A model generated the notes under the pieces. The model was not told the origin of the DNA, ran no database searches, and was given only the letters and a program-made list of their open reading frames with translations. Made by a program: the position numbers and the translations under genes. This document shows, piece after piece, positions 10,553 to 15,492 of a DNA stretch of 64,000 bases. Origin of the DNA: Sphingomonadaceae bacterium (GTDB lineage: Bacteria; Chloroflexota; UBA6077); contig JBLNDL010000057.1 in assembly GCA_050261575.1 (NCBI GenBank), positions 1 through 64,000 on the forward strand. Direction: 5' to 3'. Numbering within the stretch: the first letter of the stretch is position 1; each line of letters starts with the position of its first letter.

Positions 10553-10904
10553 TCCCTCCCTCTGGCAGGTTGTGGGCGACCTCCGGATGAGATCGGATCC
10601 ACTCGGCGAAGGCCGCCAGGATCTCAGTCTGTCGAGGTTCCCAGGCGGGCTCTACCAGGACGTAGCCGACGCCGGGCACGTCGACGCGGACCTGGCCGTC
10701 GTCCAGGACCACCATGGCGACCCGATCGTGCATGTGGATCCGCTCCTCTGGCCCGGCCCACAGGAACTCCAGCCGGCCTCGAGCCTCGTCGACCTTGATC
10801 CACCAAAGGGGCCAGGGCCCGAGGGATCTCCGTCCCTCCATGACAACCGACAAGACGGCGCCGGCTTTGACCGTGCGCTCGAGTTGCTTCGTTGCCTCGC
10901 TCAT
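10536..10904 (-). CDS. Hypothetical protein, candidate immunity protein for MuF toxin domain
   Basis: 122 aa, ATGA-coupled to the MuF stop codon. Confidence 0.6.
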   Translation of the reverse strand: MSEATKQLERTVKAGAVLSVVMEGRRSLGPWPLWWIKVDEARGRLEFLWAGPEERIHMHDRVAMVVLDDGQVRVDVPGVGYVLVEPAWEPRQTEILAAFAEWIRSHPEVAHNLPEGGIACAL

Positions 10905-13900
10905 CGGACGACGTCCTCCACCTGTCTGCCGTTGATCTCGGTGATGCCATGCTGCCTAAACAGATCCAGGATCTCCCGGCGGCGGCCGCCGGAGTTGATC
11001 CGGATCAGATTGTCCACCAGGGAGACGCCATTCTTGATGATCGCCTCGTTGGCCCCATGGCGCGAGGCGTTCTTCCATGCCGCGATCGTGACGTTCCGCC
11101 TCGTCTTGGTGGCGGGGTCGGAGCGGCCGTACATATCGCCGTCGTAGGATATCAGGTCCGTCCGGAGGAGCAGCCGCTGATCGAAGACCAGGTGGTAGCT
11201 GTCCCAGGCCCGCTTCGGCATGATTCGGGTGAAGAAGTAGCTGGCTCCGCCGGTCCTCATGTCGGGCTCGGGGCTCATCCCCTGGCCGGTGTACACCCCG
11301 GTTCGGATTCGCTCCTCAGTGTTGAGGGCCCAGCCGTTACCCTCCAGGACGTCCCGCAGGAACGTGTAGGTGTCGCGGCTCCAGAGGTGGTGGGCGAGGG
11401 CGTAGTCTGCCATCTCGGTCTCGAAGGTCGACCGGTCGATGTCGAACCGCTCCCAGTAGGGCCGGCCGGCTGGACCCGTTGCCGTCGCCCCGCTTGCCGG
11501 GTTCCAACCGCGGTCGAACTTGGGCTCGGGGTTGTAGCCCGGGAGATCCTCGAGTTTGTCAGCCTTCTTGAGCTTGAGCTTCTTCTTGAGGGCCTCCTTG
11601 AGGACGGTCAACTTGCCTGCGACCGTCGGCTCGGCCTCGGCCGCGGCGATCGCCGAGTTCCAGGCGGCATCCCCCTCCAGCTTCATGGCATGGGCTTGCT
11701 TGTGGAGGTAGACGAGCTCAAGGTCTGCCCGGGTGGCCAGCTTGGCCTCGACTCCCAGGCGCTTGAACTGGTCCAGGGTGTCGGCGATCTCCCGGGCCGT
11801 CCCCTGGTAACCCTCCCTGTAGATGGTAAGCCTGCCCATCTTGGAGTAGGTGTTGGCGTCCCCGTGCTGGATGTAAATCCCCGTCATGCCGCCCCCGAGA
11901 TCGAGGGTGTAGCCGGTCTCTCCGGAGAGGATCTCCTTGGCAGCGCTGGCGACGATCTCCCCGTTCTGGAGGGTGCGCTTGTACTGCCAGGGCCGCTCGC
12001 GGCTCGCGTGGATCTTGTCCGGCGCGATCGGCGCCGGCTTGACTGGGATCTGGTACTGTTCGGCGAAGAGGTTGGGATCGTAGGCCGCCTTGAGCCAGGA
12101 CTCGACCTGCGCGACCGAGGCGGTCGCAACGTCCAGGACCGTCTTCCCGGTCATCTTCTCGATCAGGGCCGAGTAGTGGCCGAGCATGTCCTCGACGTCC
12201 TGGGGGGCCGAGGGGGAACTCGTCTTGACGATCTTCTCCGCGGCCTTCTGGATGCCTGCGACCTTGTCTGCCTTGAGAACGTCGTCCTTGCCCGGCGAGC
12301 CGGGCTTCAGGTGGTAATGGACGTGCTTGATCGTCGTCAGGACGTCGCCCCAGAGGTTGTCGGCGGGATGGGTCCGCGGCCCCGCGGCCGACGGCGTCCC
12401 GATCGCCTGGAGGATCCTCCCCTCGGCGGCCTCCCGCACCTTGGCCTCCAGGACCAGGGTTATCTTCGTCCCCTGTCGGATCTCGTAGGCCAGGACGTGG
12501 GCGTCCTCGAAGTCGGGGCCGCCGACCATGATGGACCTGCCGGCCCATCCCTGCTCGGTTACCTGGCGAGCGAAGTCGTCGTCGAGCCTGGTGTAGGCGC
12601 CCACGGGGGTCTGCTGGCCGAGCCTGCGCGCCCGCGCTGCGTCCGCCCTCTTGTAGAGGTCGTCGAAGTCGGAGACGATGGTACGTTTGCGCTGGACCAG
12701 GCGGTCCAGGAGCTCGTCGACGGTGCGGTAGTATCCCTTGCGGACCCCGTACTCGGCGTACGGGCGGAACGCATCCCTGAGGACCCGATCATCCAGGTCG
12801 ACGACCCGCTTGAGGATGGGGGCGATCGCCGATCGATCGAGGGTGATCCGGCCAGCGATGTGGGCCTCGAACATGCGGTTGTAGACTACGGGGAGAGGAT
12901 TCGGGTTGTAGGTCCAATCGAGCGTATCGGACCCAATCCACTTGACCGCTTGCCCCTTGTCGACGGCGTAGATCCGGCCGGCCTTGCTTATCAGGAAGGC
13001 CCCCTCGTTGGAGTCGTGTTGGCCGACGAGCCAGTCAAGGACCTGGTGGGTCTGAATGTCCTCGAGTTGCTGTCTGGTCAGCGTGTGGAGACCGTCGGCC
13101 TTGAGAGGGGCGTCGACATCGTTGAACATCCTCTGGATCGTGCCCGTCTTTCCCCCAATCGTGACCAAGTACACCTCGGGGGCGGGAAGGCCGAGCTCGG
13201 CCATGATCTTGTAGGTCGCCCGCTCGGCGAGGCCGGCGACCTCATCGGGCTTGAACAGCCACTTGGCCCCTTCCTTGTCCCGGTAGACATGCTTCTCGTG
13301 GATCCCCCCGAGGCTCATGGCAATCTCGGTCAGGTCCTGTATCCACTCGGGCGACCCAGGGAGAGCCTTCGGCGGGAGTGGCGGGGTTTCCTGCTTTGGC
13401 AGGGACGGCGCCGTCGGATTGACGAGGCCCTGTCCACACCGGCAATTGTGAGTGATTATCCCTTCAGCGATGTACCATCCTGATGCTGTCTGGAGGTTGT
13501 AGACGTGACCGCGAAACGGAACGATATCGACAGCGACTATGTCGTCGGCCAGTACCTGGCCGGCAGGGGAGCTCCTAGCATCGCCAAGGAACTCGGCGTA
13601 AGCGAGACCGTCATCCGCCGGATACTTCGGGAGGGCAACGTTCAGCCTCGTCCGATCGGCAACCCCCGGTTGGACATCGATCTGACCGAGTTGAGTCGCT
13701 TGTACCTCGACGGCATCTCGGAGAAGGCGCTGGCCGAGCGCTTCGGTGTTGACCGGAGTGGTATCCGCCGACGCTTGCTTGCTCTTGGGATTGAGCCTCG
13801 CGGGCAGTCCGATGCCGAGTCTGTTAAGTGGGCGAGAATGAGCCCCGACGAGCGGTCGCGCCAGGTTGCCGCCGCCCACGCAGCTACGCGTGGCAAGCCC

Positions 13901-15379
13901 AAGTCGCTCGAAGCCAAGATGGCTCATGCCCAAACCGTCCAGTCTCGAGCTCTCCACATCTCCCCAACGGAATACCTGCTCGCCGCTCTTCTTCGGGAAC
14001 GTGGCGTCGACGTCGTTCATCAGCAGGCCATCGGTCCATACAACTGCGACCTGGGAGCCTTTCCCGTCGCCGTGGAAGTCTTCGGTGGCCACTGGCACTG
14101 GCATGGCCGACACATGCTCCGCACACCCGAACGCATGCGCTATATCCTCGATGGGGGCTGGCATCTCCTGATCGTCGCCGTCCATTCCTGGCGTCCCCTC
14201 GTGCCTGAGACGGCAGACTACATAGTCGCCTTTCTTAAGGAGGCACGCTGCGACCCAGCCAGACGGCGTGAGTATCGGGTGATTCGGGGTGCAGGAGAGC
14301 GTCTTGCCTCCGGATGTGCTGATGACGATGAGATCTCCCTCGTACCAGCGCTTGCTCGCGGCCGCGATTCCCTTGGCCGTTACGCGAGCATCCCCAGGTA
14401 GACATTGCGGGTGGAGAGGCGGGTTGGCGACCTCATATCCCCCCGGCGCTTTGAACGGCTTGTCGACCGGGACCTCCTGTCCCTTCATCTGCTTGCAGGT
14501 GGGGCAGAGGCGATCGTCAGGGGTGACTATCCATCGCCTCATGGTCTTCGACCGGTCGAGGTATCCCTGATCGGCGGCGAGCTGCCACATGGCTGCCTGG
14601 CCGGCGTTGCTGGCCGCGATCGTCTCCGTCCGAGCGATGGCCCTCGCGCGGTATCGTCGGAGGCGCAGGGCATAGTTGGCGAACAGCCTGTCGATCTTCT
14701 CGTCTGTGAGGGACTTGTCCCCCTTGGTCTGCCTCTTCTTCAGCCCGTTGTAGTAGTTGTCCGCGGCGGCAGCGAGGGTGTTCGTGAGAGGGACCAGTGG
14801 AAGGATCTTCCGCGCCAGGGCCGCTGGCCCGTAGCCCTCCTGGAACTCCTCCACCAGTAGGGCACGGATCTGGGCCTTGGAGGCCTCAGAGATGTCGTCC
14901 TTGATGAGCTTGGTCGACTCGGTCTCGGCCCACTCGAGGGCCATCGGGTTCAGCAGGTCGAAGTACCCCTTGATCTTGGGACCGAGCATGCTCATGACGG
15001 CGATGTATGGGTCGGACTCCGCCGCCCGCTTCGCCTCCGGAGGGAGGAGGTCGAGGCCCTGGCCGGCGACGTGGGCGCCCCCCAGGTAGCCGGCCCGTAG
15101 GACGTCGACCATGCGGAGGAATCGACTCTCGAGGGTCGCGTAGGGGATCGCCCCGAGGGCGGCGTCGACGTCCCGCGCTCTGATCGCCCGCACCAGGGCC
15201 CGTTCGTCCACATCGGCGAGGGCGTCCTCGAAGGAGCTGAGGATCACCCGCTCGAGGATTGGGGCGACCAGGTCGGCGACGCCGTGAATCCGCCTCCACT
15301 CGGCATCGGCCGTCGTCTCGGCAAACAGGCGCCTTGCCCGTAGAGAGGGGAGCGGAGGGCGGGTCGTCACGACTAGCAT
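10901..15379 (-). CDS. MuF (SPP1 gp7-like) minor head protein with intein, HipA/PI3K-like kinase domain and putative ART-like C-terminus
   Basis: RARAIARTET, W..TPDDRLCPTC, PPLHPQ|CRC MuF motifs; WLFKP..DWLVGQHD..IYAVDKG kinase motifs; RBS GGAGG before MLVVTT. Confidence 0.88.
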   Translation of the reverse strand: MLVVTTRPPLPSLRARRLFAETTADAEWRRIHGVADLVAPILERVILSSFEDALADVDERALVRAIRARDVDAALGAIPYATLESRFLRMVDVLRAGYLGGAHVAGQGLDLLPPEAKRAAESDPYIAVMSMLGPKIKGYFDLLNPMALEWAETESTKLIKDDISEASKAQIRALLVEEFQEGYGPAALARKILPLVPLTNTLAAAADNYYNGLKKRQTKGDKSLTDEKIDRLFANYALRLRRYRARAIARTETIAASNAGQAAMWQLAADQGYLDRSKTMRRWIVTPDDRLCPTCKQMKGQEVPVDKPFKAPGGYEVANPPLHPQCLPGDARVTAKGIAAASKRWYEGDLIVISTSGGKTLSCTPNHPILTPSGWVAACLLKKGDYVVCRLRHEGTPGMDGDDQEMPAPIEDIAHAFGCAEHVSAMPVPVATEDFHGDGKGSQVAVVWTDGLLMNDVDATFPKKSGEQVFRWGDVESSRLDGLGMSHLGFERLGLATRSCVGGGNLARPLVGAHSRPLNRLGIGLPARLNPKSKQASADTTPVNTEALGQRLLRDAVEVQATQLGQIDVQPGVADRTRLNVALPKYPADDGLAYAEFLGDARSSPAGQVLADDIVAVDIVPFRGHVYNLQTASGWYIAEGIITHNCRCGQGLVNPTAPSLPKQETPPLPPKALPGSPEWIQDLTEIAMSLGGIHEKHVYRDKEGAKWLFKPDEVAGLAERATYKIMAELGLPAPEVYLVTIGGKTGTIQRMFNDVDAPLKADGLHTLTRQQLEDIQTHQVLDWLVGQHDSNEGAFLISKAGRIYAVDKGQAVKWIGSDTLDWTYNPNPLPVVYNRMFEAHIAGRITLDRSAIAPILKRVVDLDDRVLRDAFRPYAEYGVRKGYYRTVDELLDRLVQRKRTIVSDFDDLYKRADAARARRLGQQTPVGAYTRLDDDFARQVTEQGWAGRSIMVGGPDFEDAHVLAYEIRQGTKITLVLEAKVREAAEGRILQAIGTPSAAGPRTHPADNLWGDVLTTIKHVHYHLKPGSPGKDDVLKADKVAGIQKAAEKIVKTSSPSAPQDVEDMLGHYSALIEKMTGKTVLDVATASVAQVESWLKAAYDPNLFAEQYQIPVKPAPIAPDKIHASRERPWQYKRTLQNGEIVASAAKEILSGETGYTLDLGGGMTGIYIQHGDANTYSKMGRLTIYREGYQGTAREIADTLDQFKRLGVEAKLATRADLELVYLHKQAHAMKLEGDAAWNSAIAAAEAEPTVAGKLTVLKEALKKKLKLKKADKLEDLPGYNPEPKFDRGWNPASGATATGPAGRPYWERFDIDRSTFETEMADYALAHHLWSRDTYTFLRDVLEGNGWALNTEERIRTGVYTGQGMSPEPDMRTGGASYFFTRIMPKRAWDSYHLVFDQRLLLRTDLISYDGDMYGRSDPATKTRRNVTIAAWKNASRHGANEAIIKNGVSLVDNLIRINSGGRRREILDLFRQHGITEINGRQVEDVVR
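13445..14404 (-). mobile_element. Intein, 320 aa, inserted in the MuF HPQ|CRC motif
   Basis: Block A CLPGDARV, block B CTPNHPILT, block F HVYNLQT, block G IITHN followed by Cys+1. Confidence 0.95.
13505..14401 (+). CDS. Antisense-encoded putative homing endonuclease (two HTH domains plus Vsr/DUF559-like PD-(D/E)xK domain) nested inside the intein
   Basis: GGAGG 8 nt before GTG; IAKELGVSETVIRRIL and LAERFGVDRSGIRRRL HTHs; SPTE..QQAIGPYNCD..AVEVFGGHWH..GW motif. Confidence 0.88.
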   Translation: MTAKRNDIDSDYVVGQYLAGRGAPSIAKELGVSETVIRRILREGNVQPRPIGNPRLDIDLTELSRLYLDGISEKALAERFGVDRSGIRRRLLALGIEPRGQSDAESVKWARMSPDERSRQVAAAHAATRGKPKSLEAKMAHAQTVQSRALHISPTEYLLAALLRERGVDVVHQQAIGPYNCDLGAFPVAVEVFGGHWHWHGRHMLRTPERMRYILDGGWHLLIVAVHSWRPLVPETADYIVAFLKEARCDPARRREYRVIRGAGERLASGCADDDEISLVPALARGRDSLGRYASIPR

Positions 15380-15492
15380 ACGGGCGCCCTCCGCTCGATG
15401 TAGTAGTGCCAGTCGCCGACGTTGGCGTAGAGGACCGTCGGGTCGGCGGAACGGTCCCATCCCCTCCAACTCACGAATCCCAGGACTGTCAT
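15373..15492 (-). CDS. 39-aa ORF coupling the portal and MuF genes
   Basis: ATG overlaps portal stop (ATGA); stop overlaps MuF start. Confidence 0.4.
   Translation of the reverse strand: MTVLGFVSWRGWDRSADPTVLYANVGDWHYYIERRAPVC

Follow-up and report, generated by a model that had tools for sequence, protein, structure and literature searches.

The 64,000-nucleotide stretch of DNA analyzed here (the window; positions 1 to 64,000 of contig JBLNDL010000057.1 in GenBank assembly GCA_050261575.1, from a Sphingomonadaceae bacterium with the GTDB lineage Bacteria; Chloroflexota; UBA6077) contains a phage head gene interrupted by a predicted intein, and the opposite strand of this intein encodes, in the same codon register, a predicted homing endonuclease. 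Considered together with its relatives, the insert is very probably a mobile intein of the antisense VSR-like homing endonuclease type, resident at the conserved HPx/CRC site (here and below, a slash marks an intein border) of a Mu-like MuF gene, with the signals of a presumably expressed nuclease gene written into its Hint splicing motifs.

The intein occupies 960 bases of the minus strand, from 14404 down to 13445, inside the MuF-like gene. Its Cys1 is encoded by TGT at 14404-14402 and its terminal Asn, which follows a His, at 13447-13445, and the +1 Cys of the C-extein (the exteins being the flanking parts of the host protein) lies at 13442-13444. The minus frame thus reads ...HPQ/CLPGDARV...SCTPNHPILT...FRGHVYNLQTASGWYIAEGIITHN/CRC, with block B (TPNH) at residues 39-42 and block G (THN) at residues 318-320. 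On the plus strand, an open reading frame (ORF) at 13505-14401, consisting of 298 codons and a TAG, lies wholly within the intein together with its Shine-Dalgarno sequence. The features are as follows, with values of pLDDT (predicted local distance difference test) where they come from a structural model.

13445..14404, minus strand: predicted class-1 intein of 320 codons, from Cys1 to a terminal His-Asn, with the +1 Cys at 13444-13442
14207..14404, minus strand: predicted Hint N-lobe, residues 1-66, with blocks A, N2, B and N4; pLDDT 93-98; minus-frame selection dominant
13565..14206, minus strand: intein 'linker', residues 67-280, translated from the mirror of the nuclease gene and for the most part predicted to be disordered; plus-frame coding
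13445..13564, minus strand: predicted Hint C-lobe, residues 281-320, with blocks F and G; pLDDT 88-97; family consensus
13505..14401, plus strand: predicted antisense homing-endonuclease gene, 298 codons plus TAG, with two helix-turn-helix (HTH) modules and a Vsr-like PD-(D/E)XK core
13952..14314, plus strand: predicted Vsr-like nuclease core, residues 150-270, with conserved D182, E191 and H198; the range is that of the structural match
14267..14290, both strands: putative dual-coded core, TPNHPILT on the minus strand and nuclease R255-E-Y-R-V-I-R-G262 on the plus strand; codon skew, in the Vsr-aligned region
13492..13496, plus strand: Shine-Dalgarno sequence GGAGG, mirroring N-L-Q of block F, 8 nucleotides before the start
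13505..13507, plus strand: GTG start, mirroring the His codon CAC of GHVYNL
14399..14401, plus strand: TAG stop, mirroring intein codon 2, Leu CTA
13481..13483, plus strand: upstream in-frame TGA, mirroring Ser TCA and ending the antisense frame that enters from the C-extein
13454..13459, plus strand: GATTAT, at the position of the relatives' TATAAT, mirroring the Ile-Ile of block G; 4 of 6 matches and no TG at 13451-52
10901..15469, minus strand: host gene for a MuF-like head protein of 1522 amino acids, assigned from its ORF, a Phage_Mu_F match and its neighbours

The span from 13505 to 14404 measures 900 bases, and plus and minus codons therefore coincide exactly, as the initial annotation, which was made from these letters alone, had proposed. 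Every coordinate that it gave for the embedded signals agreed with our direct reading. GGAGG falls in the complement of AAC-CTC-CAG, which encodes the N-L-Q of block F; eight bases (13497-13504) separate it from the GTG, which is the complement of the CAC codon of GHVYNL. This GTG is the first ATG, GTG or TTG of the ORF, because the TGA that mirrors the Ser codon of TASGWY shuts the frame just upstream. At the other end, ACA (14402-14404), which is complementary to the Cys1 codon, comes directly after the TAG, and because no stop can lie opposite Cys1, the final intein position able to mirror one is codon 2. Both ends of the ORF overlap Hint blocks, F at one end and A/B at the other, again as first proposed. 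N-lobe residues 2-66 are antisense to the C-terminal 65 codons of the nuclease ORF and its stop, and the C-lobe carries, mirrored, the first 20 nuclease codons, the start, the Shine-Dalgarno sequence, the 5′ leader and the family's −10 position. Of ~106 Hint residues, ~85 are thus read on both strands, and the remaining 20 carry the leader, the Shine-Dalgarno sequence and the −10 position.

This layout is that of a widespread family. A profile scan of viral contigs yielded 600 candidate stretches, at least 562 of them relatives, and we retained 80; a further 49 came from species-representative genomes of many phyla. With Vivi2 and the window added to the 129 fetched loci, the survey comprised 131. 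We anchored 125 of these on the in-register minus-frame motif VYNL-14 residues-xN/C. Of the six that this motif search left unanchored, three proved on inspection to be in-register inteins and three (L015, L110 and L115) had no Hint motif. The same-register antisense layout, with an ORF overlapping both Hint lobes, was therefore present in 128 of the 131 loci, and HPx/CRC was the common insertion site. A tblastn search with the nuclease matched 130 phage records (Salmonella 63, Gordonia 15, Pseudomonas 15, Klebsiella 8, Escherichia 6, and others), nearly all beneath head-morphogenesis or MuF genes, and in all five records that we opened (Vivi2, vB_StyS-sam, fEg-Eco06, vB_Pae_CF136b and Aaphi23) the match was antisense to the annotated head gene. 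Searching phages at the DNA level returned a single short match of 96 bases, and scanning viral contigs with the single protein returned none; it was the alignment-based scan that found the relatives. In the opened records the antisense nuclease was unannotated or present only as a fragment (ORF43 of vB_StyS-sam, 134 codons), and the intein was named in fEg-Eco06 alone.

Cys1 could be assigned in 120 of the 125 anchored loci (not in L056, L104, L122, L130 or L131), which we reduced to 99 representatives sharing <85% nucleotide identity, or to 77 sharing <70%. The best nucleotide matches to the window's intein were below these clustering thresholds, and none was close enough for a pairwise ratio of non-synonymous to synonymous substitution rates. 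Because GC content by codon position inside the insert (0.705/0.49/0.691) did not distinguish the strands, we used column entropy in a codon-column alignment of the 99 copies instead. In the 20 codons upstream of the start, entropy at plus codon positions 1, 2 and 3 was 1.55, 0.71 and 0.83, which indicates minus-frame coding, plus position 1 being the third position of the minus codons. Halfway along the element the values were 1.26, 1.10 and 1.66, as for plus-frame coding, and over the last 60 codons they were about 1.4, 0.65 and 1.1, with the minus frame dominant. Thus, the ends are under intein selection and the middle is under nuclease selection, and the two overlap.

The initial annotation had further proposed that codon choice in the intein motifs is constrained by the antisense gene, and had named beforehand a test of synonymous-site conservation, which we ran on the 99 homologous inteins. 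For each conserved minus-frame residue, we compared the synonymous codons seen with those expected from the locus's own exteins (median 362 codons). At intein codon 2, where a Leu can mirror the stop, 60 of 67 Leu codons were CTA or TTA (8.8 expected, P=5.8e-52). The block F Leu of VYNL was CTC, whose mirror is the GAG of the Shine-Dalgarno sequence, in 64 of 91 cases (22.2 expected, P=2.5e-23), and the His that mirrors the start was CAT, the complement of ATG, in 48 of 56 cases at position C+20 (24.1 expected, P=2.4e-13) and in 28 of 28 at position C+22 (12.8 expected, P=1.6e-11). All four skews remained significant with the 77 representatives. Control positions were flat: the +1 Cys (p=0.09), the block G Asn (p=0.24) and His (P=0.55), the Ile at C+8 (P=0.69), and N-extein positions −8 to −1 and Cys1 (all p>0.06).

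The signals themselves followed the same pattern. The start lay at C+20 in 57 of the 99 representatives (the two-HTH form, like the window), at C+22 in 26 (the one-HTH form) and elsewhere in 16; among the 83 with either start it was ATG in 74, GTG in 8 and TTG in 1. A Shine-Dalgarno sequence of 4-5 bases stood at the block F position in 62 of these 83 loci and in 0 of the other 16. The nuclease stop mirrored codon 2 in 59 of the 99 and was within the intein in 91; it was in the N-extein in 7, and none was found in 1. (Five of the seven N-extein stops fall on the Leu of PPLHP, four codons outside the intein, in copies whose codon 2 mirrors no stop.) As judged from the relatives' sequences, synonymous variation does not freely destroy the signals, which supports the proposed constraint at the level of the family, although not from the window alone.

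Similar skews recur where the nuclease overlaps the Hint lobes as protein. The block B Ile was ATA in 64 of 64 cases (11.9 expected, P=4e-60), a codon whose mirror encodes the invariant nuclease Tyr257, and within the same motif Thr was ACC in 78 of 98 and Leu was CTC in 56 of 93. In the N-lobe, Val8 was GTA, the mirror of a Tyr codon, in 54 of 79 cases (10.2 expected), with similar skews throughout the lobe, and opposite the early nuclease codons a Phe was TTT in 65 of 74 (25.7 expected), which gives Lys4. Although minus-frame selection dominates in the N-lobe, nuclease residues thus fix its synonymous sites, and block B TPNHPILT and the nuclease-core strand REYRVIRG appear to be truly dual-coded.

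Upstream of the Shine-Dalgarno sequence, codon choice in block G was equally informative. The codons for its Thr, Ile and Ile were ACA in 32 of 56 cases (8.9 expected), ATA in 39 of 50 (9.1) and ATT in 59 of 80 (21.3), and these favoured codons read TGT-TAT-AAT on the plus strand, an extended −10 element. At this fixed position, 28 of the 99 representatives matched TATAAT at 6 of 6 bases, 28 at 5 and 28 at 4, with TG before it in 40; TG was combined with at least 5 matches in 30. Within the whole 39-base stretch of the C-lobe upstream of the Shine-Dalgarno sequence, 67 of 99 contained a hexamer that agreed with TATAAT at 5 or more of its 6 bases, the key A and T included (36 of them perfect); judged by 5 or more agreeing bases, three equally long control stretches yielded 6 of 97, 6 of 97 and 3 of 99. 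Individual phages present the signals in series, with TGcTATAAT, GAGGT and ATG in Salmonella phage vB_StyS-sam, TGtTATAAT, GGAGGT and ATG in Aaphi23, and TTGACT-16-TATAAT in fEg-Eco06. In most relatives, this C-lobe TATAAT-like box is a candidate promoter element.

We also considered whether TGT-TAT-AAT might instead encode Cys-Tyr-Asn in a nuclease extended N-terminally to a start mirroring the block G His. We rejected this possibility because 33 of 83 loci had in-frame stops in the putative extension, with −10 quality equal in the two classes (4.76 versus 4.74 matches), and because the block G His, as noted above, shows no preference for the codon that mirrors ATG.

Might the skewed codons serve the sense strand instead, through ribosome pausing that aids intein folding or through sense-mRNA structure? 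Some of the favoured codons (CTA, TTA and ATA) are rare, and their placement at domain edges could fit pausing. However, CTC, ATT, CAT and ACC are not rare; adjacent Ile codons favour different synonyms, ATA and then ATT, that jointly give TATAAT; the preferred bases yield GGAGG, ATG and a stop, at distances from one another that could work; the Shine-Dalgarno sequence and the start co-occur among the representatives; and synonyms in the overlaps yield conserved nuclease residues, of which the Tyr257 encoded opposite the invariant ATA is an example. The fold of the window's leader RNA (13464-13540) was likewise unremarkable (−21.7 kcal/mol, z −1.41, with 18 of 200 shuffles as stable) and gave no sign of a hairpin sequestering the Shine-Dalgarno sequence. 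A sense-strand role as the source of the skews is thus very improbable, and we favour the antisense gene as their cause.

The product of that gene has 140 database homologues, the closest 51-58% identical. Modelled by AlphaFold2 with 38 homologues aligned, it reached a mean pLDDT of 91.5, with a Vsr-type PD-(D/E)XK fold resembling Vsr and I-Bth0305I that aligned over residues 150-270; Foldseek returned the same top entries as this structural match, with weak E-values. A search of solved structures by sequence only gave HTH matches, plus Vsr at E 0.68. D182, E191 and H198, candidate catalytic residues, were invariant in an alignment of 39 sequences, and the window's nuclease retains 18 of 18 invariant residues of the family alignment. 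It is therefore a predicted homing endonuclease with two HTH modules and a Vsr/I-Bth0305I-like core.

The family includes several forms of this nuclease. Two-HTH forms, in inteins of ~320 codons, start at C+20, and one-HTH forms, in inteins of ~270 codons, start at C+22; a third group has its start and its own Shine-Dalgarno sequence ~9 codons further in (for example, L034, L041, L050, L058, L083 and L126). At L015, L110 and L115, the nuclease homologues are 38-49% identical, the antisense frame in register is interrupted by stops, and the neighbourhood lacks a Hint motif; these three genes are possibly free-standing relatives of the one carried by inteins. L121, an intein of 194 codons in which the nuclease frame is broken by a stop and shortened by a large deletion, is decaying towards a mini-intein.

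On the other strand, a model of the intein folded with 60 relatives adopted a Hint fold made up of the two confident lobes listed above, and pLDDT fell below 50 over residues 131-187, 197-268 and 270-278 of the middle. N41, H42 and N320 were invariant in 61 intein sequences, and Cys1 was present in 99 of 99 representatives. The insert is thus modelled as a class-1 intein with a Hint splicing domain, and splicing is predicted. Residues 81-100 (window 14105-14164, minus strand) had a pLDDT of ~90 despite selection dominated by the plus frame; either they form a genuine element associated with the Hint domain, or conservation on the nuclease strand may have raised this value as an artefact.

Several observations weigh against the reading of the insert as an intein with deliberately embedded nuclease signals. 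Within the window alone, the embedded features do not exceed what chance would give. GGAGG occurs 434 times on its two strands (344.6 expected), and GGAGG-N8-GTG occurs 8 times (5.3 expected), a count reached in 17 of 100 shuffles. The codons are also unremarkable except for CTA, which the initial annotation had called rare and which proved to be uncommon, but not absent, in the host-gene exteins (7 of 117 Leu codons); CTC is the commonest Leu codon there (63 of 117, as composition predicts), and TTA does not occur. The Ser codon TCA, which mirrors the upstream stop, is likewise missing from the 1185 extein codons, and the in-register antisense frame of the whole host gene, rich in GC at third codon positions (GC3), is almost without stops. 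Our case for selected placement of the signals therefore rests on the codon skew of the relatives and not on the window. Among those relatives, the 26 with the C+22 start place the same Shine-Dalgarno sequence 14 nucleotides from the ATG, a long spacing, and 16 of 99 lack a start and a Shine-Dalgarno sequence at the block F positions; several of the 16 have an ATG ~9 codons deeper, accompanied by a separate AAGGA or GGAG, two are shifted by a single codon, and L121 is decayed. The relatives are also not fully independent, and codon use expected from the exteins may differ from the composition of a mobile insert, although the flat neighbouring positions argue otherwise. Finally, the Pfam matches to intein and nuclease models fall short of their cut-offs: besides its HTH matches, the plus ORF reached only 17.8 bits for REase_MTES_1575 (cut-off 38.2), and the intein scored 29.9 bits against PF14890 (cut-off 35.8), its long insert splitting the match.

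Taken at their most skeptical, these points would make the plus ORF a by-product of GC3-rich coding, with its Shine-Dalgarno sequence, start and stop arising by chance. The abundance of GGAGG and the nearly stop-free antisense frame of the host gene would fit this explanation, as would two flanking plus-strand ORFs, 10892-13483 (863 codons) and 14405-14860 (151 codons), which lie opposite the exteins, share the register of the nuclease gene and seem to result from the host GC3 of 0.84-0.89 rather than to be genes. For the nuclease ORF, however, we find such an origin scarcely credible, given the plus-frame purifying selection that codon-position variation reveals in the middle of the element, the confident model with a Vsr-like fold, the hundreds of homologues in AT-rich and GC-rich phages alike, and the fall in GC3 from the extein values to 0.70 in the insert. 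Near the insert, the sole stops of the in-register antisense frame are the two that bracket the nuclease ORF.

The remaining points of this kind concern expression of the window's own copy. Its start is GTG rather than the ATG found in 74 of the 83 relatives, its −10 position reads AGT-GAT-TAT, a scan of 13250-14600 for consensus sigma-70 promoters and terminators found none, and no RNA sequencing run is listed as carrying 13300-14550, a stretch carried by DNA runs from soil metagenomes alone. The description of the 960-bp element as self-contained in the initial annotation thus stands for the Shine-Dalgarno sequence, the start and the stop, the last of which is within the intein in most relatives too, but not for a promoter, which is not evident in the window. 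Accordingly, the element might be as described and this copy no longer expressed or mobile, being a fixed or decaying prophage copy in a soil bacterium with a nuclease intact by descent. The poor −10 match (4 of 6 and no TG, versus 5 or 6 of 6 at the fixed position in 56 of 99 relatives), the empty promoter scan, the GTG and the occurrence of a single copy in the 3.72-Mb, 103-contig assembly would all fit, and L121 illustrates that decay occurs in the family. Nonetheless, the 298-codon ORF is intact with all 18 invariant residues, the Shine-Dalgarno sequence, start, upstream stop and codon-2 stop are all present, and a GC-rich Pseudomonas phage has a similar AATTAT at the same place, such that nATTAT may be a host-adapted −10 element and not a dead one. 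We consider a silent or immobile copy unlikely, although by some way the most serious of the alternatives.

How, then, might the two strands work together? On the minus strand, two Hint lobes would be joined by ~214 mostly disordered residues of mirror translation, and after translation the intein would excise itself together with this linker, restoring MuF. On the plus strand, the free-standing nuclease presumably cuts intein-less MuF alleles at HPx/CRC, and repair-mediated copying of the intein into the cleaved empty allele would drive homing. These steps of splicing, cleavage and repair copying are proposed by analogy with the families involved. Both frames can be held open by synonymous choice, because an in-register stop arises only from Leu TTA or CTA or from Ser TCA; conversely, a stop could be placed deliberately at a Leu or a Ser. 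The Ile-Ile of block G would give nATnAT free, with two free bases completing TATAAT. A homing element would need its own expression signals within its borders, because only the insert is sure to be copied, and here the nuclease gene would fill the intein nearly wall to wall, with its last core hairpin co-encoded with block B.

We lean, with less assurance than for the identity of the element, towards a broader proposal: that a whole expression unit (the −10 element in most lineages, leader, Shine-Dalgarno sequence, start and last-codon stop) is housed in synonymous positions of blocks G, F and A and, with the co-encoding in block B, locks both selfish functions into one unit of 0.8-1.0 kb, no part of which lies beyond its own borders. 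If so, neither the intein nor the nuclease could drift without harming the other, which would explain why one layout in the same register is found across many phyla, and the family would be a natural instance, open to testing, of the same codons encoding one conserved fold on each of their two strands.

The host ORF, at 1522 codons, encodes a MuF-like minor capsid or head-morphogenesis protein, which scored 35.6 bits against Pfam Phage_Mu_F (cut-off 29.6) over residues 270-356. Its neighbours encode a Mu-type portal protein, a Mu-like protease and a capsid E-like protein, and to judge by this gene content the setting is the head module of a Mu-like phage or prophage. The MuF protein continues 3′ of the intein into an 846-residue C-terminal extension (window 10904-13441, minus strand) with a weak HipA_C-like kinase match near its beginning (22 bits, cut-off 30.5); the extension may be a cargo or toxin-like domain of the kind fused to some MuF proteins.

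In canonical bifunctional inteins of the PI-SceI and PI-PfuI type, the endonuclease is a domain of the same polypeptide as the intein. Here, by contrast, it is a separate product of the opposite strand, and the in-frame insert of the intein is disordered mirror sequence. An opposite-strand homing endonuclease has precedent in the anti-sense LAGLIDADG endonuclease of the Synechocystis DnaX intein (Gorbalenya 1998; Gogarten 2002, as cited in 10.1101/2025.01.02.630785), which, as summarized there, differs in nuclease family and host gene. In the fractured genes described by Dassa et al. 2009 (PMC2677866), split inteins accompany free-standing Vsr-like or GIY-YIG endonuclease genes. The passages of that paper on these genes likewise describe an intein-associated Vsr-like nuclease with its own expression signals, with overlaps of 6-69 bp with the intein halves; there, however, the nuclease is on the same strand and splits the host gene, which requires trans-splicing, whereas here it lies on the other strand, in a register that keeps the intein frame open, and the intein is undivided. 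I-Bth0305I, the founding EDxHD or Vsr-like homing endonuclease (Taylor et al. 2011, PMC3239194), is described there from a recA group I intron; its sequence identity to the nuclease is 14%, and the DNA-binding part here consists of two HTH modules.

The closest known system is the set of anti-sense VSR-like homing endonucleases that full inteins carry in the minor capsid proteins of actinobacteriophages (Gosselin, Arsenault, Gogarten, bioRxiv 10.1101/2025.01.02.630785), and full-text literature searches on antisense endonucleases in inteins returned no other paper. The architecture is thus already known, because the main text of this 2025 preprint reports it with the same structural assignments, and the window's element is a further example of it. 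As in the inteins described there, the host is a MuF or minor capsid gene, a contiguous intein frame is open opposite the nuclease, and the in-frame middle has no recognizable structure; the preprint's Gordonia phages Vivi2, Affeca, Keitabear and Sedona appear among our tblastn matches. Unlike that actinophage set, the present copy lies in a Mu-like prophage region of a genome from a soil metagenome. The terms 'ribosom', 'start codon' and 'promoter' are absent from the preprint's main text, to which its supplements may add. Beyond that main text, our analysis indicates that the nuclease ORF extends into both splicing lobes instead of being confined to the space between them; that its ribosome-binding site, start and stop fall in blocks F and A, with a −10 element in block G of most relatives and codon selection at these positions across 99 copies; and that block B and a nuclease-core strand are dual-coded. 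The embedded signals and the co-encoding in block B are the parts most worth experiment. The element also points to a gap in annotation, as the five opened phage records annotate the head gene alone or fragments of the antisense ORF. If expression is confirmed, the element would provide a compact natural model of antisense overlapping genes whose products are both conserved folds, and would show how a homing endonuclease and an intein can become an inseparable mobile unit.

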